Positions 4,731 through 63,705 of a stretch of 64,000 nt of DNA are shown one piece after another (within the stretch, counting starts at the first letter, position 1; the number at the start of each line of letters is the position of its first letter). The DNA is from Squalus acanthias (taxonomy: Eukaryota). A program made the translations under genes and the position numbers. The notes below the pieces were generated by a model. That model did no database searches and was not told the origin of the DNA. It saw nothing but the letters and a program-made list of their open reading frames with translations. Location of the stretch: the NCBI GenBank assembly GCA_030390025.1, contig CM059432.1, positions 35,404,001 through 35,468,000 on the forward strand, in the 5' to 3' direction.

Positions 4731-5187
4731 GTCAGTCTTGGCTCAGTGGTAGCACTCTCTCCTGAGTCAGAAGGCAATGGGTTCAAGTCCCACCTCAGAG
4801 ACTTGAGCGCATAATCCAGGCTGACACTTCAGTGCAGTACTGAGAGAGTGCTGCACTGTCGGAGGTGTCGTCTTTCAGATAAGATGTTAAACCAAGGTCT
4901 TGTCTGCCCTCTCAGGTGGATATAAAAGATCCCATAGCACAATTCAATGAAGAGCGGGGCGTTCTCCCGGTGTCCTGGCCAACATTTATCTCTCAAACTA
5001 CATCACTAAAACAGATTATCTAGTCATTTATCCAATTGCTGTTTGTGGGGCCATGTGCGCAAATTGGCTGCTACATTTCCTACAAATGCAACAGTGACTA
5101 CACTTCAAAAAGTAATTAATTGGCTGTGAAGCAATTTGAGACAACCTAAGGACGTGAAATGCACTATATCAATACAAGTTCTCTCTT
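4731..5187 (+). mobile_element. tRNA-headed SINE of SacSINE1/DeuSINE type, near full length
   Basis: A-box TGGCTCAGTGG, B-box GGTTCAAGTCC, conserved body (gatcccatagcac...cattgctgtttgtggg) and L2-like tail; many related copies in the window. Confidence 0.8.
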
Positions 5188-5649
5188 AGGAACGCAGAAG
5201 TGTAGTTTGAAAAATAGTAAACAATGGAACGATGGAATAAAGGAAAAAGGGAGGTGGGAGGAAAGAAACGAGGGAGAGGGGGAAGGAGGCATTTATACGG
5301 TGCTTCATCACATTCCAAAGCACGTCACATAAAATGCATTACTTTGAAGTGTAGAGACTGTTGTTACGTAGGCGAACACGGCAGCTAGTTTGGATAGAGC
5401 AAGATTTCATAAACAGCGATAAATTGAAGACCAGTTAATCTGTTTTTGGCAGTGTTGGTTGAGGAAGGAATATTGCCCTGGACATCAGGAGAACTCCCCT
5501 GCTCTGCTTTCAATTGGGATCTTTGACATCCACTTAAGCCAGTGGAACAGATAGACCTTGGTTTAATATCTCATCACGCTCTTTCAATTCCTTTCCGTCA
5601 AATATCTACATAGTTCCCTCTTGAATATCCTGACACTCTCCAGCTACAC

Positions 5650-5822
5650 AGAACAGAAAATGCTGGAAAAACATCAGGGCCATCAGCATCTGAAAGAGGA
5701 AAAGGGGAGGTTAATATTTCACCCGAACAGTTCTGACAAAGGGTTATACCGAAAACTTCTCTTCACAGATGCTGACATGGCTACTGTGTCTTTTTCAGCA
5801 TTTCCTGTTTTTCCTTCAGATT
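5650..5822. mobile_element. Degenerate palindromic Penelope-terminus-derived short element
   Basis: cagaaaatgctggaaaa...tttcagcatttcctg inverted ends; internal agttctgacaaagg remnant of the hammerhead core. Confidence 0.55.
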
Positions 5823-6610
5823 TGAAGTTTTTTTCCCCCAGTTAAGAGACATTAAAAAAATTGAGGGTTTCTAGGACATGGAAATGCCCTACCAGAAACA
5901 GTGGTGGACGCATAATTCATTTTAAAGAGAAATGGATAAATATTTGAAGAAGAATTTTTTTTTTTTTTTTTTTTAAGTATATGGGGAAAGTGGATAGCTC
6001 TTTCAGAAAGGCAGCACAGCTGTGATCGGCAGTAGAGCCTCTTCTGCCCTATAAAATTCTATTTTTTTTAATTCATTCTTGGGATGTGGGTGTTGCAAGG
6101 ACACCAGGAAAACTCCCCTGCTCTTCTTTCAAGGCCGGCATTTATTGCCCATCTCTAGTTGCCCCTGACGTACAACTAAGTGGCTTGCTAAGTGACTAGG
6201 CCAGACCGGGAAAGGATGGGAGGTTTCTTTCCCTAAACGACAATAGCGAACCAGTTGGGTTTTTTACGACAATCCCAACAACTTCAGTCACTTTTACCGA
6301 TACCAGCTTTTTACTTCCAGATTTTTAAAACTGAATTCAATTTCTTAAACTGTCGAATCGATTCTACATATGTGCACTAATAAAATCTAAGCCACTTTTG
6401 AATTTGAGTTTTTATCCTATTGAATCATAAAATCATAGAGTAATGAAGCACAGAAGGATGTCATTCGGCCCAACATGCCTGTGCTTGCTCTTTGAAAGAG
6501 CTACCCAATTAGTGCCACTCCCCTTGTCTTTCTCCATAGCTCTGCAAATTTTTCCTTTTCAAGGAAATATCTAGCGTAAGGACATCGACAATCAACACAA
6601 TCTAAGGGGA

Positions 6611-7103
6611 ATAACAACAGAAAACGCTGGAAAAACTCAGCAGGCCAGGCAGCATCCGTGAAGAGAGAAACAGAGTTAACGTTTCAGGTCGAAGACCTTT
6701 CGTCAGAACTGGGAAAAAAAAAGCAGGAAATGGAATAGATTTTAAAGCAGGTTTAGGGGCAGGGAAATGGGGGAGGGGATGAAAGAACAAAAGGGAAGGT
6801 CAGTGATAGGATAGAAAGCAGGAGAGATTGAGAGACATTGAGAGATATTCAAGGCAAGAGGAGGTGGTAATGTGACAGGTTAAGGAACAAAGGATGGCTC
6901 CAGATGAAGTGTGAAATGCACTGGCAGAATGAAGGACAGCTGCCATGTGGGAGGGGAGAAAAAAAGGCCAAACAAAAAGTGTGGATAAAAAAATTATATA
7001 AAATGTGATAGGGGCCGAGGTTATGATCTGAAATTGTTGAACTCTATGTTGAGTCCAGAGGGCTGTAGAGTGCCTAATCGAAAGATGAGTATTTTGCTAT
7101 TAT
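6611..7103 (-). mobile_element. Penelope-like element 3' fragment with a 14-bp flanking duplication
   Basis: Clearly homologous to 58515-58960; flanked by ACAATCTAAGGGGA at 6597-6610 and 7104-7117. Confidence 0.85.
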
Positions 7104-7114
7104 ACAATCTAAGG

Positions 7115-7655
7115 GGACCCTGCATCAGTGCATCAGGCAGCTAACGGGGATCTTGCATCAGTGCAGTCAGCTACCTAAAGGAACCCTGCGTCAGTGCAGT
7201 CAGCTACCTAAAGGAACCCTGCGTCAGTGCAGTCAGCTACCTAAAGGAACCCTGCATCAGTGCAGTCAGCTACCTAAAGGAACCCTGCGTCAGTGCAGTC
7301 AGCTACCTAAAGGAACCCTGCATCAGTGCAGTCAGCTACCTAACGAGACCCTGCATCAGTGCAGTCAGCTACTTAATGGGGATCTTGCATCAGTGCAGTC
7401 AGCTACCGAACAAGACCCTGCATCAGTGCAGTCAGGCACCAAACAGGGACCCTGCATTGATGTCATCAGACACCTAACGTGAATTCTGCATCATTGTAGT
7501 CAGGCAGCAAATGGCGACCCTGCATCAGTCCAGTCATCTAGCTAACGTGAATCCTGCATCAGTGCAGTCAGGCAGTTAACAGGGACGCTGTATCAATGCA
7601 GTCAGCTACCGAATGGGGACCGTACATCAGTGCAGTCAGGTGCCTAACAGAATCC
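7115..7655 (+). repeat. 33-bp minisatellite (GAACCCTGCGTCAGTGCAGTCAGCTACCTAAAG), about 15 units, decaying toward the right
   Basis: Direct tandem units are visible and produce the spurious 11-aa repeat ORF QCSQLPKGTLR. Confidence 0.92.
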
Positions 7656-8331
7656 TGAGGCCCACGCGCTTGATGTCTGACGGTAGGCCGTCATCTTGAT
7701 CAGTTCATATCACGTCAGGCTGGTTGGTCACAGTCTTTTTATATTTAGTCATGCATTGTAATTTAGAGCCACAATGACTCTGGCACTCAAAGTCAGGCAT
7801 CAAGGGAGCTGCAGCTCAGCTAAAGTGGCATCGCACTGGTGAAGGAGGACGCTGTAGCGGGGCTGGTTGAGGCACCTGGTTGGGACAATGCAGTGGGAGA
7901 TTCACGCTTCATTTAACTCTTGCAATACCCAGTCCTTGAATGCAAGTACAACTCTTTAACAACCACCTTCTCAGCCAGAATGCTGCACCAAAAATGTCGT
8001 GAGCTGGAAGGACACACACACAAACAGCTCCGATTTAGGGTTCCTGGCCCATCATCAACGCCTCCCGTTTAACCTCCCTTTTCGTTCCCCATGGGAGTAG
8101 GGATTGCCTTCTCCTAAAGTTCAAACTAAAATTAGTGCTCCTCATACACAGTGACTGTGCTTCATGCAGAATGACTTCAATGTTGCTGCACTCTGCCCTC
8201 TGCTCCTTGATAAGATGAATATGTAGCAATGACTCAGCAAAGCAGATCACTGAAAGTCCGGCAGCTAACGGGGATCTTGCAGCCAAAGTCCGCACACACT
8301 GTGTCCACAGGGAAAGTTCGCACACACTAGT

Positions 8332-9050
8332 GGGCCAGAAACTCGGGTCTCCACGGGTGAGTACGCGCTGTGTACTCACCCGTAAACCCAACGAAAGTGC
8401 CGGTTTCGTGCATGCGCTGGAAACCGGAACTCCTGTTCCCTTGAAGGAAGGGGTTCGGAGGTCAAGCGCGCACGCATCGAACTTCCATTTTTTTTCAGGT
8501 TTCTGTGTGAGGGTAAGTCCTCAGCAGCTGCGCGGGGAAAAAGCAGGCTTTTAACAAGGTAAGTGGTGAATTAACTAAAATTAAAACATTTTTTTCCCCA
8601 CAGGTTTATTATTTTTAAATACTTTAAAGAAAGGTAAGTTTATTTTTAGCCCCGTTAAAAACTGTAATTAATTTTTTCAAAAATTTAAATTGTTTACAAT
8701 AGTTATGTGTAATTTATAGTTATTTTAAAAATGTGATTTAAAAAAAAAATGTATTTGAAGTTTTAGTGAGGTTTTGGGGCCGATCTCTATTCATAGATTT
8801 GACAGGTCTTCCTGTCAAATCTATGAATGGAGATTCCCTGCTCCGATTGGCTCTCCATGGTCCACGTGATCCCAGGGGACGCTTCGAACTAACTGCGCCC
8901 CTGGGATACGCAAGCACTGCACACCGGCAGCTGGAGGAGGCCCAGGATCGGAATTCCACGCGGACCCAGAGCACAACGGCAGGCGCGCTAGGTAAGTGCA
9001 GGTTGGGGGGCTTGCACCCGCGGGAAGCCTCCGACCCGAATTTCTGGCCC
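8332..9050. mobile_element. Non-autonomous TIR element (MITE), PIF/Harbinger-like, 719 bp
   Basis: TIRs GGGCCAGAAACTCGGGTC / GACCCGAATTTCTGGCCC; 3-bp flanks AGT/ACT; no transposase ORF; internal perfect hairpin. Confidence 0.75.
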
Positions 9051-9081
9051 ACTGTGCCCACAGGGAAAGTCCGCACACACT

Positions 9082-9860
9082 GGGCTGGATTTTGTCTTGG
9101 GGTCGGGTTGGGGTCGTGTCATCCGCATTTCGTGTTCCCCCCCCCCGACTCCAGATTAATGTGGATGAATGATGCAATTTTCACTTAATTGGGCAATTGA
9201 GTTCCAGCATGTGGGAACCCATGAACCAATTAGTGGTTTCAGTCTGAAAGTCGCCTCTGATGATGTCATCATTGCTGACTGCCTGGTCTCAGAGACTGTC
9301 TGGCTGTTGGTGAGAGCGGACCTGCCTGGCTTTTGATGTGAGTGGACTTGGATGCAAAATGGAGAGAGAGAGAGAAGAGAGAGAGAGATTTTTGCATCCA
9401 AGCCCTCTCACAGCAAAGGCCATGCAGTCTCTGAAAACATTCAATGCAGCAGCATCAGAGGTGATTTTCAGATCTAATACTACTACCCATCACAATACTA
9501 CTACCTTCATCACATCTCCGTTGTAATAGTGGACCTGCAGCTGATAGTCAGCTATCCACTTGTGCTCCCGCCAGGTTTCACTGGAATGTTTCACATCAGG
9601 CGTACTTCACGTCGGAAAAGGGTTAAACTAGCTAAAACCTTTCAAAATGGCATTGCAGAGCCAATTTAGGGCTTGTTAAGGGCTTTAATGGCCTCTCCCG
9701 CCTCTTGGAGGCAGGACGGAGTCGGGAACCCTGCGACTGATTTGTCAAAATTGTGTGGAGGCGGAATGGAGTCAGGATGGGGTCGAGACCCCCGACTTCG
9801 CAAATTTAACCCCCCACACGCCTCCAAACCCGACTCCATGGGTCATTCAAAATCCAGCCC
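9082..9860. mobile_element. Second, different non-autonomous TIR element (MITE), PIF/Harbinger-like, 779 bp
   Basis: TIRs GGGCTGGATTTTG / CAAAATCCAGCCC, 3-bp TSD ACT, and subterminal inverted similarity (ggggtcgggttgg / ccaaacccgactcc). Confidence 0.8.
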
Positions 9861-10441
9861 ACTGTGTCCACAGGGAAAGTCCGCACACACTGGAGGTTTA
9901 CATACTACCAACCCCGCACTGAACGAACAACCCCACATAGAAACAGCTTTCTTTTCTTTTATTGTCCTTCATTACTCTCCTGAAGTGTCAGGTCACTCAC
10001 TGAAGCAAGGTCAAAAGGGCACAAGCAGCAAGTACCGTCCCCATGTCCAGGTCACTGTTAAACAGGGTATTCAATGGAGAAGGGCATTACAGCAGAGTCA
10101 GATCCTCTCCTCACCAGACATCTGTTTCACACATCTTCCAACAGTGGTCGTTAGATAGCAATCAGGAATGGATACTCTGTGTTCGCACCCTCCCTCCCCT
10201 AACTCAAAGGCACTGAGGCCACTGTCGCATGGAGAGCACTGCAATATCAGAATGCAGTGGATCTGTGCCTGTGCTGTGGAATATTTGCCACTTGAGGGCA
10301 GCAGATATCACCAACACCTCTCTAACTGCCGAGCCGAATGACATGTACAACCAACAGAAGGTACTTGAAACACACGCCAGCATCTGAAGAGACAGGTTAA
10401 CATTTCAAATTTCTAGCACTGCAGGTGTTTTGTTTTTAGTC

Positions 10442-12300
10442 TTAGGAAAGCAAAGAGAGGGCATGAAAAAATATTGGCAAGTAACATCAAGGAAAACCTA
10501 AAGATGTTTTATAAATACATTAAGAGCAAGAGGATAACTAAAGAGTAGGGCCTATTAGGGACCATAAAGTTAACCTGTGTGTGGAAGCAGAAGACATGGG
10601 TATGGTTCTTAATGAATACTTTGCGTCTGTTTTCACAAAAGAGAGGGACGAAGCAGACATTGCAATCAGGGAGGAGGAGTGTGAAATATTAGATGAAATA
10701 AACAGTGAAAGAGGAAGTATTAAGGGGTTTAGCATCTTTGAAAGTGGATAAATCCCCAGGCCCGGATGAAATGTATCCCAGACTGTTGAGAAGAGAGGAA
10801 ATAGCAGAGGCTCTGACCATCATTTTCCAATCCTCTCTGGCTACAGGTATGGTGCTGGAGGACTGCTAACATGGTACCATTGTTTAAAAAGGAAGAAAGG
10901 GATAGACCGAGTAATTACAGGCCAGTCAGCCTAACCTCAGTGGTGGGAAAATTATTGGAAAAAATTCTGAGGGACAGGATAAATCTTCATTTAGAAAGAC
11001 ACGGATTAATCAGGGACAGTCAGCATGGATTTGTTATGGGAAGGTCGTGTCTGACTAACTTGATTGAATTTTTTGAGGAGGTAACAAGTAGGGTCGATGA
11101 GGGTAGTGCGTTTGATGTAGTCTATGTGGATTTTAACAAGGCTTTTGATAAGGTCCCGCATGGCAAACTGGTCACAAAAGTAAAAGCCCATGGGATCCAA
11201 GGCAAAGTGGCAAGTTGGATCCAAAATTAGCTCAGAGGCAGGAAACAAAGGGTAATGGTCGATGGGTGTTTTTGTGACTGGAAGGCTGTTTCCAGTGGGG
11301 TTCTGCCGGGCTCAGTACTGGGTCCTTGGCTTTTTGTGGTATATATCAATGATTTGGACTTGAATGTAGGAAGTATGATTAAGAAGCTTGCAGGCGATAC
11401 AAAAATTGGCCGTGTGGTTGATAATGAAGAAAGCAAGCTGTAGACTGCAGGAAGATATCAATGGACTGGTCAGGTGGGCAGAACAGTGGCAAATGGAATT
11501 CAATCTGGAGAAGTGTGAGGTAATGCATTTGGGGAGGGCTAACAAAACAAGGGAATACACTATAAATGGTAGGCACTGAGAAATGCAGAAGATCAGAGGG
11601 ACCTTGGAGTGCATGTCCACAGATCCCTGAAGGTAGCAGGACAGGTAGATAAGGTGGTTGAGAAGGCATACGGGATACTTGCTTTTATTAGCCGAGGCAC
11701 AGAATATAAGAGCAGGGAGGTTATGCTTGAACTGTATAAAACACTAGTTAGGCCGCAGCTAGAATACTGCGTGCAGTTCTGGTCACAACGTTACAGGAAG
11801 GATGTGATTGCACTTGAGAGGGTGCAGAGGAGATTTATGAGGATGTTGCCTGGGCTGGGGAATTTTAGCTATGAGGAAAGATTGGCTAGGCTGGGGTTGT
11901 TTTCTTTGAAACAGAGGAGGCTGAGGGCCTAATTGATGTGTATAAAGTTATGAGGGGCCGAGATAGAGTGGATAGGAAGGACCTATTTCCCTTAGCAGAA
12001 GGGTCAATAACCAGGGGGCATAGATTTAAAGTAATTGGTAGGAGGTTTAGAGGGGATTTGAGGAGAAATTTTTTCACCCAGAGGGTGGTGGGGGTCTGGA
12101 ACTTACTGCCTGAAAGGGTGGTAGAGGCAGAGACCCTCATCATATTTAAAGTACTTGGATATGCACTTGAAGTGCCATAACCTACAAGGCCACGGACCAA
12201 GTGCTGGAAAGTGGGATTAGGGTGGATAGCTCTTTGTCGGCCAGCACGGATAAGATGGGCCGAATGGCCTCCTTCTGTGCTGTAAATTTCTATGATTCTT
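10442..12300 (+). mobile_element. 5'-truncated CR1-type LINE (RT and 3'UTR)
   Basis: [28 protein letters not shown] and FFTQRVV motifs with frameshifts; tail ttctatgattct. Confidence 0.93.
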
Positions 12301-12899
12301 AGTGATGCAGCTAATTTTCCAAAATGATTAGAGATCTCTACCAACTACAGAGGGGGAAGAGACTGAGGGATACACGTGCAGAGGCTGTCTGGAACATATG
12401 AGCTGAGAAGAGGCTGTAAGGGGCACAGGTGCAGAGGCACAAAACCAGCAATGAGGCACAGGCTCACAAATGTGCAGAAGAGGAAAAATAATGCAAGGAA
12501 GGCTATGCTGAAAAAACAAAAGGTGCAATGCAGGAGGGTGCAAAGCTGAGGTGCCTGAGAGAGGGGCAGTGGGGGTGGGAGGGAATGGCTGGAGAAATAT
12601 CTAGAATGGGTTGGGTAGATAGGTTTTAGTGATTTGCGTCAGGTGTACTTCATTTTTGAGACTTTTATTGTGTTAGAAATTGTATTTGTAGGGGTACATA
12701 GCAAGGATCAAGGCCAGGAATTGGAAAAAGGCTGGCGAGAGAGCTGCTCAGAGGCAGTGAACTAAGTGTTTACATGTTTTGGGAAGGTTGAACCAACGAA
12801 GGTTTTTTGGGAAATTTTGGCCAATGAAGATTTGCACATTGACATGCAAGATTCTTTGGACAGATAGAAGAGAATTAAACGGAGTTAGATAATTATATG

Positions 12900-13051
12900 A
12901 AATAACAGAAAATGCTGGAAACACTCAGCAGGTCAGGCAGCATATCCATGGAGAGAGGAAAAAACTCTCCATGGATGCTGCCTGACCCGAGTGCTTTCAG
13001 CTTTTTGTGTTTTTATTTCAGATTTCCAGCATCTGCAGTAGTTTGCTATTG
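12900..13051. mobile_element. 152-bp palindromic Penelope-terminus-derived element with a 14-bp TSD
   Basis: Long self-complementary core (ggtcaggcagcat..tccatggagag / ctctccatggatgctgcctgacc); flanked by TAGATAATTATATG at 12886-12899 and 13052-13065. Confidence 0.8.
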
Positions 13052-14620: not shown

Positions 14621-15954
14621 GTCATAGAGTTATACAGCACAGAAAGAGGCCCTTTGCCCCATCGTGTCTGCGCCGGCCATCAAGCCCTATCTATTCTAAT
14701 CCCATTTTCCAGCACTTGGTCCGTAGCCTTGTATGCTATGGCGTTTCAAGTGCTCATCTAAATGCTTCTTGAATGTTGTGAGGGTTCCTGCCTCTACCAC
14801 CCTTTCAAGCAGTGAGTTCCAGATTCCAACCACCCTCTGGGTGAAAAAGTTTTTCCTCAAATCCCCTCTAAACCTCCTGCCCCTTACCTTGAAACTATGC
14901 CCCCTAGTTATTGACCCCTCTACTAAGGGGAAAAGTTCCTTTCTATCTACCCTATCTATGACCATCATAATTTTGTACACCTCAATCAGGTCCCCCCTCA
15001 GCCTTCTCTGCTCTAAGGAAAACAACCCCAGCCTGTCCAGTCTCTCTTCATAGCTGAAGCGCTGCAGCCCAGGTAACATCCTGGTGAATCTCCTCTGCAC
15101 CCTCTCCAATGCAATCACATCCTTCCTATAGTGTGGCGACCAGAACTGCACACAGTATTCCAGCTGTGGCCTAACTAGCGTTTTGTACAGCTCAATCATA
15201 ACCTCCCTGCTCTTATATTCTATGCCTCGGCTAATGAAGGCAAGTATCCCATATGCCTTCTTAACCACCTTATCTTCCTGTCCTGCTGCCTTCAGGGATC
15301 TATGTACATGCACACCAAGGTCCCTCTGATCCTCTGTCCTTCCTAGGGTCCTACCATTCATTGTGTATTCCCTTGCCTTGTTAGTCCTCCCAAAAGGCAT
15401 CACCTCACACTTTTCAGGGTTAAATTCCATTTGCCACTGTTCTGCCCATCTAACCATCCCGTCTATATCGTCCTGTAGCCTGAGGCTTCCCTCCTCGCTA
15501 TTTACCACGCCACCAATTTTCGTGTCATCTGCGAACTTACTGATCATACCTCCTACATTCATATCTAAATCATTAATGTACACTACAAACAGCAAGGGAC
15601 CCAGCACCAATCCCTGCAGTACACCACTGGACACAGGCTTCCAGTCACAAAAACAACTTTCGACCATCACCCTCTGCCTCCTGCCACTAAGCCAATTTTG
15701 GATCCAATGTGCAAAATTGCCCTGGATCCCATGGGCTCTTACCTTCTTGACCAGTCTCCCATGCGGGACTTCGTCAAAAAGCCTTACTGAAGTCCATGCA
15801 GACTACATCAACTGCACTACCCTCATCCACACACCTAGTCACCCCCTCGAAAAATTCATTCAAATTGGTTAGACATGATCTCCCCCTGACAAAGCCATGC
15901 TGACTATCCTTGATTAATCCTTGCCTCTCCAAGTGGAGACTAATTCTGTCCCTC
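14621..15954 (-). mobile_element. CR1-type LINE 3' half, inserted into a SINE head
   Basis: 324-aa RT ORF at 14696-15670 (FADDTK, RPQLEYC); SINE sequence resumes at about 15955. Confidence 0.95.
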
Positions 15955-27799: not shown

Positions 27800-30700
27800 A
27801 CAGTAACCTAGTGATTATGGTACAAATCCCACTATGGCAAGTTGGGCAACTGAATTCAATCTATCTGGTAATTTATGGGCTAGTGCCAGAAAAATAACCA
27901 TGAAAGCTTCCCAATTGTCTTAAAAACCCAACTGGTTCACTATACTCAGAGGGTTGTGAATCTTTGGCATTCTCTGCCCCAGAGGGCTGTGAATGCTGAG
28001 TCTTTGAGTATATTCAAGGCTGAGATAGATAGATTTTTGGACTCTAGGGGAATCAAGGGATATGTAGAATGGGTGGGAAAGTGGAGTTGAGGTCGATGAT
28101 CAGCCATGATCTTATTGAATGGCAGAGCAGGCTCGAGGGGCCGTATGGCCTACTCCTGCTCTTATTTCTTATGTTCTATGTACCCAGTCTGGCCTACATA
28201 TGACTCCAGTCCCACAAGACATGGCTGACTCGAAGCCCTCTGAAGTGGCCTAGCAAGCCACCCAGCTGTAAACAATTGCTACAAAATTCAATAAGAAAAT
28301 TGGACAGCCAATATCCCATACCCCTCCATCACCATCCCTGGGTACGGCATGTCGCAATGGGAGGATAGGCCCAGCAAAGGTGGGGGACAGTGGTAAACAG
28401 TCAAGTGGGAATGGCACTGGCAGTCACCAACATTACCTCCGGAGCCCATGAAGTCTAATAGCTTCAGGGAAACAAGATCGAGGAAACCTCTTGCTGATGA
28501 ACACAGTCCATCGCCCCCGCCACCTGTCCAACTGATGAATCAGTACTGTTCCAGGTTGAACTGTTCCGTCTTTACAGTAGAGGACACTAAGAATATCCCA
28601 ACACTGGACAAACAGGGGGCTATAGGGGGGGGGGAAGGCAGCTAAACATGATCAAAATCACTAAGGAAGTGGTACTCGGTAAAATAATGGGACTCAAGGC
28701 GGATAAATCACCTGGACCTGATGGCTTACATCCTAGGGTCTTGAGGGAAGTGGCGGTAGGGATTGTGGATGCATTGGTAATAATTTTCCAAAACTCCCTG
28801 GATTCAGCAAAGATCCCGGCAGACTGGAAAACTGCTAATGTAACACCCTTATTTAAAAAGGGCAGTAGACAGAAGGCTGGAAACTAGACCGGTTAGCCTA
28901 ACATCTGTGGTAGGTAAAATTTTGGAGTCCATTATTAAGGAGACAGTAACGGGACATTTGGATAATCATAATTTAATAGGACAAAGTCAGCATGGTTTTA
29001 TGAAGGGGAAGTCATGTTTGACAAATTTGCTGGAGTTCTTTGAGGAAGTAACACACAGGGTGGATAAAGGGGAACCAGTGGATGTGGTGTATTTAGACTT
29101 CCAAAAGGCATTTGACAAGGTGCCACACAAAAGATTGCTTAAGATAAAAAATCACAGGATTGGGGGTAATATTCTGGCATGGATAGAGGATTGGCTATCT
29201 AACAGAAGGCAGAGAGTTGGGATAAATGGTTCATTCTCAGACTGGCAATCAGTAACTAGTGGTGTTCCGCAGGGGTCAGTGCTGGGTCCCCAACTCTTTA
29301 CAATCTATATTAACGATTTGGAGTAGGGGACCGAGTGTAACATATCAAAGTTTGCAGATGATACTAAGATGGGAGGGAAAGTAGTGAGTGAGGAGGACAT
29401 AAAAAATCTGCAAGGGGACATAGACAGGCTAAGTAAGTGGGCAGAGATTTGGCAGATGGAATACAATACTGGAAAGTGTGAGGTTATGCACTTTGGCAGG
29501 AAAAATAGTAGAGCAAGTTATTATCTAAATGGCAAGACACTGGAAAGTACTGAAGTACAAAGGGATCTGGGGGTCCTGGTGCACGAAACTCAAAAGGTTA
29601 GTATGCAGGTGCAGCAAGTGATTAAGAAGGCCAATGGAATGTTGGCTTTCATTGCTAAGGGGATAGAATATAAAAATAGGGAGGTATTGCTTCAGTTGTA
29701 CAAGGTATTGGTGAGACCGCACCTGGAATACTGCATACAGTTTTGGTGTCCATACTTAAGAAAAGACATACTTGCTCTCGAGTCAGTACAAAGAAGGTTC
29801 ACTCAGTTAATCCCGGGGATGAGGGGATGGACATATGAGGAGAGGTTGGGTAGAGTGGGACTCTACTCATTGGAGTTCAGAAGAATGAGAGGCGATCTTA
29901 TTGAAACATATAAGATTGTGAAGGGGTTGGATCGGGTGGATGCGGGGAGGATGTTCCCGATGATGGGTGAAACTAGAACTAGGGGACATAGTCTTAGAAT
30001 AAGGGGCTGCTCTTTCAAAACTGAGATGAGAAGGAACTACTTCACTCAGAGGGTGGTAGGTCCATGGAATATGCTGCCCCAAAAAGCTGTAGAAGCTACA
30101 TCATTACATAAATTTAAAACAGAAATAGACAGTTTCCTAGAAGTAAAGGGAATTAAGGGTTATGGGGAGCGGGCAGGAATTTGGACATGAGTCTAGGTTC
30201 GGATCGGTCATGGCCCTGTGGGTAGCATAGCGGGCCCAGGGGCCTTGTAGCCTGATCCTGCTCCTATTTCGTGTGTCCAATTCTGTTAGGTTCAGGAGAT
30301 GGTTCTGTGATAGTAGATTGGCGGTTAGGATCAGATCAGCCATGATCTTATTGAATGGCGGAGCAGGCTCGAGGGGCCAATTGGCCTACTCCTGCTCCTA
30401 TTTCTTATGTTCTTATGTTCTTATGTTAATCACCTGGAGAATGCCAGAGGTTAAGAAAAAGCACAGAATGTGCTCTGGGTGAGGGATTTCAATGTCCATC
30501 GTTGACCAAGCTAGCTGAGTCCTGAAGGATGTAGCTGCCAGATTGAACCTGCGCCAGGTGGTGTGGGAACCAACTTGACCTCACCCTTACCCTCATCAAT
30601 CTACCTGTTGCAGACATATCTGTCCACATTAGCACTGGTAGAAGTGACCGGTGCCCAGTCCTTGTGAAGACAATGTCTTGTCTCCACTATGAGCACATCC

Positions 30701-32180: not shown

Positions 32181-35100
32181 CACGATTCAAAAAGTGACGC
32201 GGGCAAGAGGAAGCAGCTGATTGGGTGAGTACGGCCAGGTGAGTATTTATACTACTCTATAGTTTGACAGTTCAGGTTAATAGTTTATAAAGTTTAGAAG
32301 GTCTTAATTTTGTGGTTATAGTTTCTGAGGTCTCTGTTGTGTAACGGGGAGTGCTAGTAAACATGGGTCCTTGAGTATAACATTTAATAGTAGTGTAATT
32401 GGTGGTATTGATTTGATTTAATTTAAGTTAATTAAAGGGTAAGTCATGGCAGCACAGCTCGGCCCCGTGGTATGCTCCTCCTGCGCTATGTGGGACATCA
32501 GGGACGACCATGTGTGCAGGAAGTGTATCCAGCTTCAGCTACTGGCAGACTGCATTGCGGCGCTGGAGCTGCGAATGGATGCATGCTGGAGCATTCGCGA
32601 CGCTGAGGACGTCGTGGATATCACGTTTAATGAGTTGGTCACACCGCAGGTAAAGGCTGCACAGGCAGGAAGGGAATGGGTGACCACCAGGCAGAGAAGT
32701 AGGCGCAGGCAGGGTCCCCTGTGGCCATCCCCCTCTCAAACAGATATGCCACTTTGGATATTGTTGAGGGGGATGGCTTATCGGGGGAAGGCAGCAGCAA
32801 CCAACTTCCTGGCACCATGGGTGGTTCTGCTGCACAGGACGGGAGGAAAAAGAGCGGGAGAGCTATAGTGATAGGGGATTCTATTGTAAGGGGAATAGAT
32901 AGGCGTTTTTGCGGCCGCAAACGAGACTCCAGGATGGTATGTTGCCTCCCTGGTGCAAGGGTCAAGGATGTCTCGGAGCAGCTGCAGGGCATTCTGGAGA
33001 GGGAGGGTGAACAGCCAGTTGTCGTGGTGCATATAGGTACCAACGATATAGGTAAAAAACGGGACGAGGTCCTAAAAGCTGAATATAGCGAGTTAGGAGG
33101 TAAATGAAAAAATAGGACCTCAAAAGGTAGTAATCTCAGGATTGCTACCAGTGCCACGTACTAGTCAGAGTAGAAATAGAAGGATATTTCAGATGAATAC
33201 GTGGCTAGAAGAATGGTGTAAGGGGGAGGGATTCAAATTCCTGGGACATTGGAACCAGTTCTGGGGGAGGTGGGACCAGTACAAACTGGACGGTTTGCAC
33301 CTGGGCAGGACCGGGACTGATGTCCTAGGGGGAGTGTTTGCTAGTGCTGTTGGGGAGGGTTTAAACTAAAATGGCATGGGGTTGGGAACCTGTGCAGGGA
33401 AACAGAGGAAAGGGAAACAAGGATAGAAGCAAAAGACAGGAAGGAGAAAAGCAAAAGTGGAAGGCAGAGAAATCAAGGGTGTAAATCAAACATGGCCACA
33501 GTAAACAATAATTCTAAATGGTCTAAGAGTGTTAAAAAAACAAGCCTGAAGGCTCTAGTGTCTTAATGCGAGGAGCATTCATAATAAGGTGGATGAATTA
33601 GCTGCGCAAATAGATGTAAACGGATATGATATAATTGGGATTACGGAGACATGGCTCCAGGGTGACCAAGGCTGGGAATTCAACATCCAGGGGTATTCAA
33701 TATTCAGGAAGGACAGGCAAAAAGGAAAAGGAGGTGGGGTAGCATTGCTGGTTAAAGAGGAGATTAACACAATAGTAAGGAAGGATATTAGCTCTGATGA
33801 TGTGGAATCTGTATGGGTAGAGCCGAGAAATACCAAGGGGCAGAAAACATTAGTGGGAGTGTTATACAGACCCCCAAACAGTAATGCTGAGGTTGGGGAT
33901 GGCAATAAACGGGAAATTAGAGACGCGTGCAATAAGGGCACAGCAATTATCATGGGTGACTTTAATCTACATATAGATTGGGCTAACCAAATTAGTAACA
34001 ATACTGTGGAGGAGGAATTCCTAGAGTGTATACGGGATGGTTTCCTGAACCAATATGTCGAGGAACCAACTAGAGATCAGGCCATCTTAGACTGGGTATA
34101 ATGTAATGAGAAAGGATTAATTAGCAATCTTGTGCGAGGCCCCTTGGGGAGGAGCGATCATAATATGATAGAATTCTTCATTAAGATGGAGAGTGAAGTA
34201 GTTGACTCAGAGACTAGGGTCCTGAATTTAAATAAAGGAAACTACGATGGTATGAGGCGCGAGTTGGCTAGGATGGATTGGGGAACGTTACTTGAAGGGT
34301 TGACGGTGGATAGGCAATGGCAAACATTTAAAGATCGCATGGATGAACTACAGAATTTGTTCATCCCTGTTTGGCATAAAAATAAAACAAAAAAGGTGAC
34401 TCAACCGTGGCTAACAAGGGAAATTAGGGACAGCATAAGATCCAAGGAGAGGACATATAAATTGGCCAGAAAAAGCAGCAAACCTGAGGATTGGGAGCAG
34501 TTTAGGATTCAGCAAAGGAGGACAAAGGGATTAATTAAGAGGGGGAAAATAGAGTATGAGAGTAAGCTTACAGGGAACATAAACACTGACTGTAAAAGCT
34601 TCTATAGATAGGTGAAGAGATAAAGATTGGTGAAGTCAAGCGTAGGTCCCTTGCAGTCAGAATCAGAGGAATTTATAATGGGAACAAAGAAATGGCAGAC
34701 CAATTAAATACATAAATAACAACAGAAAATGCTGGAAAAACTCAGCAGGCGAGGCAACATCCGTGGAGAGAGAAACAGAGTTAACATTTCAGGTCGAAGA
34801 CCCTTCGTCAGAACTGAGAAAAAAAGCAGGAAATGAAACAGATAAAAAAGCAAGTGGGAGGCTGGGGGAAGGAATAAAAGAACAAAAGGGGTGGTCTGTG
34901 ATAAGTAGAGACATTAAGAGATGCTCAAGACGAGACGAGATGGTAATAGGACAGGTTAAGAAACAAAAGATGGCTCATAAGTGTGAAATGCTGGCAGAAT
35001 GAAAGACAGCTGCTGTGGGGGAGAGAGAAAAAAAAGGGGAAAAGGCACAAACCAAAAGTGTGGATATGGTAGGGGCCGAGGTTATGACCTGAAATTGTTG

Positions 35101-36836
35101 AACTCGATATTGAGTCCGGAATACATATTTTGGTTCTGTCTTCACAAAGGAGGACACAAATGAACTGCCAGAGATGTCGGGGAACATAGGCTCTAATGAG
35201 AGGGAGGAATTGAATGAAATCAGTATTTGTAGGGAAATGGTGTTAGGGAAATTGACAGGATTGAAGGCCGATAAATCCCCAGGGCCTGATAATCTACATC
35301 CTAGGGTACTTAAGGAAGTGGCCCTAGAAATAGTAGATGCATTGCTGGTCATCTTCCAAAATTCTATAGACTCGAACAGTTCCCATGGATTGGATGATAG
35401 CTAATGTAACCCCACTATTCAAAAAAGGTGGTAGAGAGAAAATGGGGAATGTAAGCTTGACATCAGTAGTGGGGAAAATGCTAGAGTCCATTATAAAAGA
35501 TGTAATAGCAGAGCACTTGGAAAATAGTGACAGGATCGGACAAAGTCAACATGGATTTACAAAAGGTAAATTATGCTTGACTAATCTACTGGAATTTTTT
35601 TGAGGATGTAACTGGTAGAATAGATAAGGGAGAACCAGTGGATGTGGTGTATTTGAACTTTCAGAAGGCTTTCGATAAGGTCCCGCATAAGAGATTAGCG
35701 TGCAAAGTTAAAGCACACGGGATTGGGGGTAAGGTACTGTCTTGGATAGAAAACTGGTTGGCAGACAGGAAGCAAAGAGTTGGAATAAATGGGTCTTTTT
35801 CCGAGTGGCAGGCAGTGACTAGTGGGGTACCGCAGGGATCGGTGCTAGGACCCCAGTCATTCACAATATATATTAATGATCTATCCAAGGGAACTAGATG
35901 CAATATCTCCAAGTTTGCAGACGACACAAAGCTGGGTGGGCGTGTGTGCTGTGAGGAGGTTGCAGAAAAACTCCAGTATGATTTGGACAGGTTGGGTGAT
36001 TATACTGCATCTGCCATGCATCTGCCCAATGTGGATAAATGCGAGGTTATCCACTTCGGTGGCAAAAAGAGGAAGGCAGATTATCTGAACGGCAATAGAT
36101 TGGGAAAAGGGGAAGTGCAACGAGACCTGGATGTCCTTGTGCACCAGTCGCTGAAGGTAAGCATGCAGGTGCAGCAGGCGGTTAAGAAGGCAAATGGTAT
36201 GTTGGCCTTCATAGCGAGAGGATTAGAGTACAGGAGCAAGGATGTCTTGCTGCAGTTGTACAGGGCCTTGGTGAGACCACACCTTGAATATTGTGTACAG
36301 TTTTGGTCGCCTTATCTGAGGAAGGATGTTCTTGCCATGGAGAGAGTGCAGCGAAGATTTACCAGACTGATACCTGGGATGGCAGGAATGACGTATGAAG
36401 AGAGATTGGGTCGATTGGGCTTGTATACGCTAGAGTTTAGAAGAATGAGAGGGGATCTCATTGAAACTTATAAAATTCTAACAGGACTAGACAGACTAGA
36501 TGCAGGAAGGATGTTCCCGATGGTGGGGGGAGTCCAGAACCAGGGGTCACAGTCTAAAGATAAGGGGTAAGCCATTTAGGACTGAGATGAGGAGGAATTT
36601 CTTCACCCAGAGAGTGGTGAACCTGTGGAATTCTCTACCACAGAAGACAGTTGAGTCCAATTCATTAAATATATTCAAGAAGGAGTTAGATATATTTCTT
36701 AAGGCTAAGGGGATCAAGGGATATGGGGAGAAAGCAGGGACAGGGTACTGAATTTGGATAATCAGCCATGATCGCATTGAACGGCGGAGCAGGCTCGAGG
36801 GGCCGAATGGCCTACTCCTATCTTCTATGTTTCTAT
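32181..36836 (+). mobile_element. Full-length CR1/HER1-type LINE: 5'UTR, ORF1 (Cys zinc finger + SGNH esterase), ORF2 (APE + RT), 3' tail; inactivated
   Basis: ORF1 has CxxC..CxxC, IGDSIVR, HIGTND and DGLHL; ORF2 has GITETW, GGGV, GDFN, SDH, QHGF, PQGS and FADD; inserted in a SINE/L2 tail caacttgcat|ttatatagc. Confidence 0.95.
34715..35119 (-). mobile_element. Penelope-like 3' fragment inserted into the CR1 ORF2
   Basis: Homologous to 6611-7060 and 58515-58930; TSD AATACATA at 34707-34714 and 35120-35127. Confidence 0.88.
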
Positions 36837-44179: not shown

Positions 44180-45154
44180 TCCCTTGCTGTTTGTAGTGTA
44201 CATTAATGATTTAGATATGAATGTAGGAGGTATGATCAGTAAGTTCGCAGATGACACGAAAATTGGTGGGGTGGTAAATAGCGAGGAGGGAAGCCTCAGG
44301 CTACAGGACGATATAGACGGGATGGTTAGATGGGCAGAACAGTGGCAAATGGAATTTAACCTTGAAAAGTGTGAGGTGATGCATTTTGGGAGGACTTACA
44401 AGGCAAGGGAATACACAATGAATGGTAGGACCCTAGGAAGGACAGAGGAACCTTGGTGTGCATGTACATTGATCCCTGAAGGCAGCAGTACAAGTAGATA
44501 AGGTGGTTAAAAAGGCATATGGGATACTTGCCTTCATGAGCCGAGGCATAGAATATAAGAGCAGGGAGGTTATGATGGAGCTGTACAAAACGCTAGTTAG
44601 GCCACAGCTGGAATATTGTGTGCAGTTCTGGTCGCCCTCTATAGGGAGGATGTGATTGCATTGGAGAGGGTGCAGAGGAGATTCACCAGGATGTTACCTG
44701 GGCTGGAGCGTTTCAGCTATGAAGAGAGACTGGACAGGCTGGGGTTGTTTTCCTTAGAGCAGAGAAGGCGGAGGGGGGACCTGATTGAGGAGTACAAAAT
44801 TATGATGGTCATAGATAGGATAGATAGAAAGGAACTTTTCCCCTTAGTAGAGGGGTCGATAACTCAGGGGCATAGTTTCAAGGTAAGGGGCAGGAGGTTT
44901 AGAGGGGATTTGAGGAAAAACTTTTTCACCCAGAGGGTGGTTGGAATCTGGAACTCACTGCCTGAAAGGGTGGTAGAGGCAGGAACCCTCACAACATTCA
45001 AGAAGCATTTAGACGAGCACTTGAAAACGCCACAGCATACAAGGCTACGGACCAAGTGCTGGAAAATGGGATTAGAATAGATAGGGCTTGATGGCCAGCG
45101 CAGACACGATGGGCCGAAGGGCCTCTTTCTGTGCTGTATAACTCTATGACTATC
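44180..45154 (+). mobile_element. CR1-type LINE 3' part, same subfamily as 14621-15954, opposite orientation
   Basis: Near-identical to the reverse complement of ~14621-15600. Confidence 0.93.
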
Positions 45155-45270: not shown

Positions 45271-45706
45271 GGGCAACACGGTGGCATAGTGGTTAGCACT
45301 GGTGCCTCACAGCGCCAGAGACCCGGGTTCGAATCTGACCTCGGGTGACTGTCTGTGTGGAGTTTGCACATTCTCCCCGTGTCTGCGTGGGTTTCCTCCG
45401 GGTGCTCCGGTTTCCTCCCACAGTCCAAAAATGTGTGGGTTAGGTTGATTTGGCTATGATAAATTGACCCTTAGTGTTAGGGGGGATTAAATATGTGGGG
45501 TCATGGGGATAGGATGGGATATGTTAGGGGGAATTAAATATGTGGGGTTACGGGGGTAGGGTGGGATATGTGTACTGTGGGGATTAAAGCAGGGACAGGG
45601 TACTGGATTTGGATGATCAGCCATGATCGTATTGAATGGCGGAGCAGGCTCGACGGGCCGAATGGCCTACTCCTGCTCCTAGATTCTATGTTTCTATGTT
45701 TCTATG
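45271..45706 (+). mobile_element. HE1-type V-SINE, full length
   Basis: tRNA head (TGGCATAGTGG / GGTTCGAATC), V-domain gtgtggagtttgcacattctccccgtgtctgcgtgggtttcctccgggtgctccggtttcctcccaca, and CR1-derived tail with (ttctatgt)n. Confidence 0.88.
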
Positions 45707-45749
45707 TGTGCTGAGAGAGAGCCAACAAAAACACAGCAAGAAAACTGGA

Positions 45750-45902: not shown

Positions 45903-46402
45903 NNNNNNNNNNNNNNNNNNNNNNNNNNNNNNNNNNNNNNNNNNNNNNNNNNNNNNNNNNNNNNNNNNNNNNNNNNNNNNNNNNNNNNNNNNNNNNNNNN
46001 NNNNNNNNNNNNNNNNNNNNNNNNNNNNNNNNNNNNNNNNNNNNNNNNNNNNNNNNNNNNNNNNNNNNNNNNNNNNNNNNNNNNNNNNNNNNNNNNNNNN
46101 NNNNNNNNNNNNNNNNNNNNNNNNNNNNNNNNNNNNNNNNNNNNNNNNNNNNNNNNNNNNNNNNNNNNNNNNNNNNNNNNNNNNNNNNNNNNNNNNNNNN
46201 NNNNNNNNNNNNNNNNNNNNNNNNNNNNNNNNNNNNNNNNNNNNNNNNNNNNNNNNNNNNNNNNNNNNNNNNNNNNNNNNNNNNNNNNNNNNNNNNNNNN
46301 NNNNNNNNNNNNNNNNNNNNNNNNNNNNNNNNNNNNNNNNNNNNNNNNNNNNNNNNNNNNNNNNNNNNNNNNNNNNNNNNNNNNNNNNNNNNNNNNNNNN
46401 NN
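45903..46402. other. Assembly gap (500 N)
   Basis: Run of N; the round size suggests a placeholder of unknown true length. Confidence 0.99.
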
Positions 46403-58289: not shown

Positions 58290-59650
58290 AGGAAGACTTG
58301 CATTTATATGGTGCATTTCACGACCACCAGACGTCTCAACGCACTTTACAGCCAATGAAGTACTTTTGGAGTGCAGTCACTGTTATAATGTAGGAAACGT
58401 GGCAGCCAAGTTGTGCACAGCAAGCTCCCACAGACAGCAGTGTGATAATGACCAGATAATCTGTTTTTGTTGTTGATTGAGGGATAAATATTGGCAGGAC
58501 ACCAGGGATAACTCAAATAACAACAGAAAACGCTGGAAAAACTCAGCAGGCCAGGCAGCATCCGTGGAGAGAGAAAGAGAGTTAACGTTTCAGGTCGATG
58601 ACCTTTCGTCAGAACTGTGAAGAGCCGGAAATCAAATAGATTTAAGGCCAGAGTAAAGCTGGGAAAAGGGGGAGGGGATAAAAGAACAAAGGGGGGAATG
58701 AAGAGACATTAAGAGACATTAAGAGATATGCAAGGCTAGAGGTGGTGTTAATGTGACAGATTAAGGCTGAAAGAAGTGTGAAATCCACTGGCAGAATGAA
58801 GGACAGCTGCCAGCTTCTAGGAGGAAAAAAAAGGCGGGGGGGGGCAAATAAAAGGGTGGAAAAAATAAAATATAAATGTGATTGGAGCTGAGGTTATGAT
58901 CTAAAATTGTTGAACTCGATATTGAGTCCAGAGGGCTGTAGCGTGCCTAAACGAAAGATGAGGTGCTGTTCCTCGAGCTTACGCTGCGCTTCCGTGGAAC
59001 AGTGTAATAGGCCGAGGACGGTGAGGTCAGAGTGGGAGTGAAGCGGTGAATTAAAGTGACAGGCCACCGGGAGCTCGGGGTCCCCCTTACGGACTGAACG
59101 GAGGTGTTCCGCAAAGCGGTCACCCAATCTGCGTTTGGTCTCCCCAATGTAGAGGAGACCACATCGTGAGCAGCGAATACAGTATACTAAATTGCAGGAA
59201 GTACAAGTAAATCGCTGTTTCACCTGGAAGGGGTGTTTGGGGCCCTGGACAGTGGGAAGAGGGGAGGTGTAAGGGCATGTGTTGCATCTCCTGCGCGTGC
59301 ACGGGAAGGTGCCGGGCGAAGGGGAAGGGGTGCTGGGGGTGGTAGAGGAGTGGACTAGGGTGTCGCGGAGGGAGCGGTCCCTGCGGAATGCTGAAAGGGG
59401 AGGTGAGGGGATAACTCCCCTGCTCTTTTTCAAAATAGTGCCATGGGATCTTTTACATCTTACCCGAGAGAGCAGACAGGGCATCAGTTTAATGTCTCCT
59501 CCAAAAGACTACCTCCAACAGTGCAGCATTCCCTCAGTACTGTACTGGAATGTCAGCCAAGATGTTTATGCTTAAGTTTCTGGAGTGGGAATTGAACCCA
59601 CAACCTTCTGGTTCAGAGGCAAAAGTGCTACCCACTGAGCCACAGCTGAT
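58290..59650 (-). mobile_element. SacSINE1/DeuSINE-type SINE split by a Penelope insertion
   Basis: Tail at 58290-58514 and head at 59408-59650 join across the TSD. Confidence 0.85.
58515..59407 (-). mobile_element. Penelope-like retroelement 3' part with an intact GIY-YIG endonuclease domain
   Basis: ORF segment CTRRRCNTC...NLVYCIRCSRCGLLYIGETKRRLGDRFAEH...GLN; TSD GGGATAACTC at 58505-58514 and 59408-59417. Confidence 0.93.
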
Positions 59651-62354: not shown

Positions 62355-63705
62355 TTGAAAAAGAGACAGAGTCCAGTTATTTTGATGGTGGGGGATTCGG
62401 CAATGGTAATGCCATTGAATGTCAATGGGCGGTGGTTAGACTCTCACTTGTTGGAGATAGTCATTGCCTGGCACTTCTGTGGCGCAAATGTTACCTGCCA
62501 CTTATCAGCCCAAGCCTGAATGTCGTCCAGGTCTTGTTGCATGCGGGCATGGACTGCTTCATTATCTGAGGAGTTGTGAATGGCACTGAACACTGTGCAG
62601 TCATCAGCGAACATCCTCATTTCTGACCTTAAGTTGGAGGGAAGGCCATTGATGAAGCAGTTGAAGATGGCTGGGCCTAGGACACTGCCCTGAGGAACTC
62701 CTGCAGCGATGTCCTGGAGCTGTGATGATTGACCGTCAATCACCACAACCATCTTCCTTTGTGCTAGGTATAGAAACATAGAAACATAGAAACATAGAAT
62801 CTAGGAGCAGGAGTAGGCCATTCAGCCCGTCGAGCCTGTTCCACCATTCAATACGATCATGGCTGATCATCCAAATCCAGTACCCTGTCCCTGCTTTAAT
62901 CCCCACAGTACACATATCCCACCCTACCCCCGTAACCCCACGTATTTAATTCCCCCTAACATATCCCATCCTATCCCCATAACCCCACATATTTAATCCC
63001 CCCCTAACACTAATGACTCCAGCCAGTGGAGAGTTTTCCCCCGATTCCCATTGACTTCAGTTTTACCAGGGCTCCTTCATGTCACACGCCGTCAAATGCT
63101 GCCTTGATGTCAAGGGAGTCACTCTCACCTCACCTCTGGAATTCAGCTCCTTTGTCCCTGTTTGGACCAAGGCTGTAATGAGGTCGGGAGCAGAGTGGTC
63201 TTGGCAGAACCTAAACTGGGCATCAGTGAGCAGGTTATTGGTGAGTAAGTGCCGCTTGATAGCACTGTCGATGACACCTTCCATCACTTTGCTGATGATT
63301 GAGAGTAGACTGATGGGGCAGTAATTAGTCGGATTGGATTTGTCCTGCTTTTTTGTGGACAGGACATACCTGGGCAGTTTTCCACATTGTCGGGTAGATG
63401 CCAGTGTTGTAGCTGTACTGGAACAGCTTGGCTAGAGGCGCGGCTAGTTCTGGAACACAAGTCTTCAGAAGGACAGCCGGGATGTTGTCGGGGCCCACAG
63501 CCTTTGCTGTATCCAGTGCGCTCAGCCGTTTCTTGATATCACGTGGAGTGAATCAAATTAGCTGAAGACTGGCTTCTGTGATGATGGGGACCTCAGGAGG
63601 AGGCCGATATGGATCATCCACTTGGTACTTCTGGCTGAAGATGGTTGTAAACGCTTCAGCCTTGTCTTTTGCACTCACGTGCTGGGCTCCATCGTCATTG
63701 AGGAA
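62355..63705 (-). mobile_element. Second-family CR1-like LINE RT region, interrupted by an HE1 fragment
   Basis: [34 protein letters not shown] and KAVGPDNIP-like motifs on the minus strand. Confidence 0.9.
62772..63012 (-). mobile_element. 5'-truncated HE1-type SINE
   Basis: Reverse complement is near-identical to ~45470-45706; the LINE sequence rejoins as aggtat|gactcc. Confidence 0.88.

Follow-up and report, generated by a model that had tools for sequence, protein, structure and literature searches.

Two different transposable elements with terminal inverted repeats (TIRs) occupy the same position in consecutive units of a 28-bp minisatellite in the genome of Squalus acanthias, and this two-element arrangement is real and non-random. 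The most probable explanation, at about 70%, is ordinary target choice: the minisatellite was there before the insertions and presented a favoured target of the Harbinger type several times over. The window is the whole stretch of DNA analysed (64,000 nucleotides; contig CM059432.1, positions 35,404,001 to 35,468,000), and all coordinates below are given relative to its first base. Part of the segment 7700–10500 was found in 24 public runs, of which four, all consisting of assembled contigs, were compared, namely X1 and X3 (two samples of organism A), X24 (organism L), and X6 (organism B).

Organisation of the 28-bp array

The array has a period of 28 bp and includes 3.6 units, and the ACT site is occupied in two of the three complete units. 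The layout given in the original prediction, i.e. an intact unit, two units split at one site and a closing partial unit, is correct to the base. The features are as follows.

7114–7650: 33-bp minisatellite, 16 copies
7136–7157, plus strand: donor of the filler, within the first units of the 33-bp minisatellite
8253–8259, plus strand: stub corresponding to bases 1–7 of the 28-bp unit, left over from a destroyed unit or produced by a short duplication; alignment of the organism L ortholog ends at 8259
8260–8284, plus strand: filler, 22 nt from 7136–7157 and 3 further bases; likely a break-repair scar
8285–8312, plus strand: unit 1, intact; ACT centre at 8298–8300 is an empty target
8313–8328, plus strand: left part of unit 2 through ACT (8326–8328); T for C at 8318
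8329–8331, plus strand: extra triplet AGT, outside the unit and probably outside element 1 too
8332–9050, no strand assigned: element 1, 719 bp, non-coding; TIR 8332–8349 and 9033–9050
9051–9081, plus strand: spacer of 31 bp with ACT at either end, made up of the rest of unit 2 (9057 is C instead of T) and the left part of unit 3
9082–9860, no strand assigned: element 2, 779 bp, non-coding; TIR 9082–9094 and 9848–9860; ACT duplication
9861–9875, plus strand: remainder of unit 3; present from 9841 onwards in X1 and X3 and from 9866 onwards in X24
9876–9892, plus strand: partial unit 4; ACT without the right-hand palindromic flank; empty

Compared with their consensus, the units carry two deviating letters in 100 (8318 and 9057), and no further copy of the unit occurs within the 64-kb window. 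Each unit includes two GTCC tetramers, which flank the target. Direct repeats of 31 bp formally bracket each element (8298–8328, 9051–9081, and 9861–9891, with 1–2 differences). Removal of the two elements together with the two spacers still leaves the first 16 nt of the unit in two copies 28 bp apart; hence, the period predates either insertion. The alternative raised earlier, that the units were themselves generated by insertion, leaves the 28-bp period itself unexplained.

The two elements

Element 1 has an 18-bp TIR with one mismatch that starts with GGG, and its interior includes a 24-bp palindrome (8783–8834). As predicted, it is a 719-bp TIR element flanked by ACT-AGT on one side and ACT on the other, unit 2 being opened after the ACT at 8326–8328. 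Element 1 carries, all on the plus strand, four donor-like motifs (GGTAAG) and two acceptor-like ones (polypyrimidine-AG) at 8488–8640 and 8989–8997, and element 2 has none. An X3 contig that joins 9051 to 8354 passes from the right terminus of a copy of element 1 through a few bases into the left terminus of a related element whose TIR is a variant, so that the two are arranged head to tail at another locus.

Element 2 has a perfect 13-bp TIR that begins with GGGCT, and an exact ACT on both sides of 9082–9860 bears out the clean target site duplication (TSD) claimed for this 779-bp element. When the window was scanned for TIR pairs that start with G and are bounded by exact 3-bp duplications, 20 candidates were obtained; mismatch-free arms were found in element 2 alone, and the remaining 19 have 3 mismatches in 13 positions. 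Two scans of the window for TIR-bounded elements revealed no other convincing one, nor does a second copy of either element occur in the 64 kb. The two elements are unrelated, as had been claimed: their best and only shared match is a single 12-nt stretch with an E value of 2.9, which is at chance level.

The interior of element 2 forms a long imperfect hairpin (about 9243–9472) with a GA-rich (GA-repeat) loop. The depth over 9298–9485 is high in the runs of organisms A and B and zero in X24; hence, the hairpin is a module that varies within the family and not a nested insertion peculiar to this copy. An Rfam scan of 7000–10600 with the elements in place revealed no ribozyme or other family, and two sub-threshold miRNA matches fell on this hairpin.

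Abundance of the elements and state of the flanks

The depth of the flanks in three runs (3.8–5.0, 13.9–37.3, and 19.1–21.9) corresponds to single contigs. Relative to the flanks, the median depths of elements 1 and 2 are 1.4e5 and 1.6e5 in X1, 1.8e4 and 2.5e4 in X3, and 7.4e4 and 4.5e3 in X24, where summed depth is not a copy number and is used solely to indicate that the families are very abundant and behave separately. The depths of the two elements are thus about 16-fold apart in X24 and roughly equal in X1 and X3. Both families are very high-copy and lie here inside single-copy DNA.

The left outer junction is present in X1 and X3, each having one contig that extends from the left flank across the array head and 26 bases into element 1 (to 8357), with 5 and 6 other letters, respectively, and 2 gap letters in the bin 7982–8075 of the depth table. 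The right outer junction is likewise present in both, in a contig that starts at 9841, 20 bases within element 2, and reaches the right flank. X1 and X3 carry both outer junctions and deviate from the window at several flank positions. The middle spacer (9051–9081) has no cover among the pieces listed (32 of 86,652). In X24, the depth in the bin 9862–9955 is 31.7, as compared with 19.1 for single-copy DNA; excess depth to the right of element 2 as a sign of a shared flank was dropped, being erratic between runs.

Pattern scans of viral, prokaryote and metagenome contigs gave no true copy of either family. The ends and interiors of the elements had 0 matches in viral contigs and 0 in prokaryote genome contigs, and the lone metagenome match is attributable to chance (24 nt in DNA of 69% GC, with no further likeness). 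Database look-ups by sequence or place returned nothing for element 1 or element 2, and a bacterial MITE was rejected as a relative (3 of 180 words in common).

Relationship to known transposons

The elements appear to behave like Tourist-type non-autonomous PIF/Harbinger elements. PIF/Harbinger TIRs are usually shorter than 60 bp and start with A or G; those found here are 18 and 13 bp and both start with GGG. As delimited by Han et al. (2015), PIF/Harbinger proper produces TWA duplications, and those found here are ACT at element 2 and ACT-AGT / ACT at element 1. Thus, of the PIF/Harbinger traits named in the original prediction, the GGG-starting TIRs and the 3-bp duplication stand, and membership in the strict sense does not follow, the TSD being ACT and not TWA or CWG. 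An autonomous partner within the PHIS superfamily would share the ends of these elements and encode a DDE transposase, together with a Myb/SANT gene. A Pfam profile scan of 27 of the longer frames of the window, five of which touch the elements, revealed no transposase and no Myb domain. The matches obtained were to pieces of LINE reverse transcriptase or endonuclease and to one GIY-YIG piece.

Among the lineages of the PHIS superfamily described by Han et al. 2015 (PMC4482050), NuwaI shares GGG-starting TIRs (12–61 bp) but has CWG duplications, in place of the ACT found here. Pangu has ANT duplications and a GG start, both of which are matched at this locus, although the hosts listed for it in that source include no vertebrate. 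Both lineages are defined there on their transposases, and the elements described here have none. As regards ANT in other copies of the elements, 284 X24 contigs show A after element 1, two of the pieces listed do not, and one has A-T-C.

Both elements resemble Tourist-like MITEs in being non-coding, TIR-bounded and high-copy with a 3-bp duplication, to which element 1 adds an extra triplet on one side. Tourist-like MITEs such as rice mPing, as described in PMC4561436, PMC2836001, and PMC4423477, are likewise non-coding and have short TIRs, a 3-bp duplication and very high copy numbers. Element 1 fits the GG(G/C)CC start given there for rice, whereas element 2 starts with GGGCT. The rice elements are 100–500 bp long with TTA/TAA, as compared with 719 and 779 bp and ACT here. 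A close likeness in target is to zebrafish Harbinger3_DR / Harbinger3N_DR (Sinzelle et al. 2008, as cited in PMC3016246 and PMC2836001), with a palindromic target that has ACAC on the left and GT-T on the right of a 3-bp centre. However, the centre of that target is CWG rather than ACT and the outer flanks disagree, giving 7 of 12 positions overall. A survey (PMC9179366) found no Harbingers in the one cartilaginous fish that it included and called for more species.

Two other candidates were rejected. Insertion without duplication, as in Spy, would place AGT / ACT within the TIR of element 1, but the copies diverge at 9050–9051, inside the triplet; the exact duplication at element 2 also argues against this reading. 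A hammerhead-bearing Penelope repeat as the target was rejected, since the Rfam scan, made with the elements in place, revealed no ribozyme core and the flanks are single-copy.

Target site

In zebrafish, Harbinger3_DR is reported to integrate into a 15-bp palindromic consensus (PMC3016246), and PMC2836001 describes an extended target preference for the Harbinger superfamily (9 bp in plants, 15 bp in vertebrates). The target in the array consists of a 3-bp ACT centre between self-complementary ACAC and GTGT. With the elements removed in silico, ACAC-ANT-GTGT is found at two places only in a sequence of about 62 kb, unit 1 and unit 3 of the present array; the filled unit 2 departs from the palindrome by C at +4. 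The inner flanks match the Harbinger3_DR target at 7 of 8 positions in units 1 and 3 and at 6 of 8 in unit 2. A match to the zebrafish flank alone is insufficient, since 31 of the 35 positions that match it at 7 or 8 of 8 are outside the array and empty.

Sites of the looser form A-N-N-Y-ANT-R-N-N-T number 96 in the window. The 33-bp minisatellite located 650 bp upstream served as a control array: its 16 units include 38 ANT triplets, none with A-N-N-Y / R-N-N-T flanks, and it carries no such element. Under uniform insertion, the chance of a second element at either of the other equivalent triplets is ~3e-5. The chance of the same register is ~4e-4 among all ANT triplets and ~0.02 among A-N-N-Y-ANT-R-N-N-T sites, these values applying to windows that were chosen for oddities.

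Flanks of other copies were also inspected. In X24, 284 contigs diverge behind 9051, one base past element 1 (24 of 1,970 loose ends are listed), and their consensus begins with T-T-A-T-A-T at an agreement of 0.38. This fits A-N-T followed by R-N-N-T, and an AT-rich background would give nearly the same. Two X6 contigs break off exactly where an element ends, record 29 at element 1 (8 letters clipped) and record 31 at element 2 (14 letters clipped), and the first flank base is not A if the coordinates follow the record's own direction. Record 30 of X6 has A at the contig end after the element, and in the X3 joint a copy of element 1 is followed by A and then TC. Neither an allele nor an ortholog with unoccupied sites was seen in the four runs compared. 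The preferred palindromic landing site proposed originally is thus in keeping with the Harbinger3_DR match, the control array and the copy number, whereas the few other flanks seen are mixed. A target preference shared by both families is likely.

Repair scars within the array

The filler at the head of the array includes an exact copy (8260–8281) of 7136–7157, 1,124 bp upstream, and the match is 24 of 25 with the extension. The donor is the sole exact match in the window, and other units of the 33-bp minisatellite differ at no fewer than 5 of 22 positions. The expected number of such filler matches is ~3e-9. Among random 32-mers, 21 of 2,972 had such a match within 1.3 kb; 20 of these lay in tandem-array or low-complexity bins and one at the filler site itself. 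The filler is carried by X1 and X3 and is uncovered in X24. Its left junction is an imperfect match of 3 of 4 bases, and together with the stub it lies 6–14 bases from the expected position of a target centre. For the right half of the unit, no donor longer than 9 nt was found within 5000–13000. An interpretation of the filler as a decayed unit was rejected, as 25% of shuffled fillers align to the unit equally well.

The filler looks like a templated copy put in at a repaired break. On one reading, 21 bases of an earlier unit, its target among them, would have been replaced by 25; on another, a 7-base duplication would have arisen around the filler. Templated insertion by polymerase theta is a source of filler at double-strand breaks. 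In rice, 58 of 94 putative excisions described in PMC4423477 had filler (mean 13 bp) and 43 had flank deletions (mean ~18 bp). The site studied here resembles the excision sites of that account in having a short copy from nearby, set with a local deletion or duplication and an imperfect left junction; transposon excision would be a possible cause of the break.

The second scar is the extra AGT, which is placed outside the TIR of element 1 because the X24 copies diverge behind 9050–9051, within the matching right-hand triplet. For mPing, a staggered cut of the TSDs with 5' overhangs has been proposed, and non-matching TSDs sometimes leave both triplets as a footprint (both in the mPing work of PMC4561436). 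With this geometry, an excised element bears a triplet of its donor site, and hence a one-sided ACT-AGT junction would be possible in one step. An excision footprint followed by insertion and one substitution would also work.

Corresponding locus in organism L

In X24, the flanks differ from the window at 45 of 1,044 letters. The left contig (record 9) halts at 8259 with 82 letters clipped, and the right contig (record 16) aligns from 9866 with 34 letters clipped, so that it contains the last part of unit 3 together with partial unit 4 but lacks the end of element 2. The split of the ortholog into two contigs suggests that some repeat lies between them in organism L too. Both breakpoints (8259 and 9866) are at GTCC. 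Organism L may have a unit without the 15-base target segment.

Surroundings of the array

The window is rich in LINE fragments and SINE-like repeats, and neither a host gene nor a transposase was found in 27 of its longer frames. A Penelope-like remnant adjoins the 33-bp minisatellite. An interspersed repeat occurs at 6610–7089, 34715–35120, 58516–58962 and, on the minus strand, 58897–59508 (76–79% alike); its copy at 58.5 kb overlaps the frame with the weak GIY-YIG match (Pfam E value 1.4e-4, just under the cut-off). LINE fragments at 566–2394 and 28565–30419, 28 kb apart, are 96.6% alike over 1.86 kb and represent either a young family or a local duplication. Inverted LINE pieces 96–97% alike are present at 14621–15599 / 44180–45150 and at 45471–45707 / 62776–63013, and those at 44–45 kb directly precede a gap of 500 N (45903–46402).

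Discussion

In the preferred explanation, the 28-bp tandem repeat would have come first, every unit including a palindromic target of the PIF/Harbinger type. Two separate abundant non-autonomous families would then have contributed one insertion each, at the ACT centre and with a 3-bp staggered cut. The positions and ends of the elements, the ACT duplication at element 2, the high copy number and the single-copy flanks are observed, and the enzyme and its target preference would be of the kind just described. A site would also have been broken and then mended, with 22 nt from the minisatellite 1.1 kb upstream placed at the head of the array. The 22-nt copy is plain; break repair would account for it, possibly after excision of an earlier element from the unit that is now a stub. 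The AGT at element 1 would be a donor-site triplet brought on a 5' overhang or a two-triplet excision footprint.

Of the other explanations, the one that survives best, though unlikely, is a feed-forward hot spot. One or two units would have been present at the start, and cycles of insertion and excision with templated repair would have copied units, each a new target, so that the array would be partly a product of transposon activity. This is in keeping with a templated filler and a unit stub close to the expected target centre (6–14 bases) and with a second junction anomaly, ACT-AGT, within the same 100 bp. Moreover, the divergence of the units (2/100), the age of the elements (~2.7%, from word shares) and half of the divergence between the organism A and L flanks (45/1044) are alike, and the position of both X24 breakpoints at GTCC would point to an array built differently in organism L. 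However, tandem arrays are built by slippage or unequal exchange without transposons, as in the neighbouring 33-bp array. The split of the X24 ortholog into two contigs with clipped letters (82 and 34) suggests a repeat there too and not one short empty site, and the filler could have been produced by any break.

Coincidence or regional openness, with no sequence preference, is very unlikely. The families are so abundant that close pairs must occur somewhere in the genome, the flanks of other copies are mixed, and the windows were picked for oddities. Against this stand the same register to the base, with a chance of 3e-5 to 4e-4 per such pair, and the larger 33-bp array nearby, which is untouched.

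It is harder still to accept a long target duplication, in which the element ends would have been joined to ACT centres 28 bp apart and 31 bp thereby duplicated. The 31-bp direct repeat that formally surrounds each element, with 1–2 differences, agrees with such an event. It would nevertheless require the same abnormal event twice and, in addition, a prior 28-bp period; the copies of element 1 in X24 pass into unrelated sequence after one base, and a fixed 3-bp stagger is the rule in the superfamily.

A single composite element spanning the whole 1.6 kb, the case that the original prediction itself had set against its reading, or an assembly artefact can practically be dismissed: the contig pieces listed (32 of 86,652) leave the middle spacer uncovered, but two other samples that differ at flank positions repeat the outer junctions, the flanks are single-copy, and the families vary separately between organisms (depths ~16-fold apart in X24 and about equal in X1 and X3).

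The preferred explanation, insertion into a pre-existing array of targets, makes a known property visible by means of a tandem repeat, namely the long palindromic target of Harbinger-type elements, and is in that respect one more case. The Harbinger-type picture is widened by two families and by ACT as a target centre. In the literature searched, outside which most subscription journals lie, there was no report on phased insertion in tandem repeats or on capture of a donor overhang. The locus is a compact test case, in that 100 bp of original DNA contain two occupied targets, an unoccupied one and two repair scars.

A stronger reading is a self-feeding target array, in which insertion, excision and templated repair copying the site would lead to minisatellites born and grown by transposon traffic; at present this is rather improbable. 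If it is true, the ACT-AGT junction would preserve an overhang of the donor site that was brought to the new site and, within the literature searched, would be the first trace of this cutting geometry to be read from a vertebrate genome. Transposon excision would then be a source of minisatellites, and extra-triplet junctions would reveal the cutting geometry from genomes alone.
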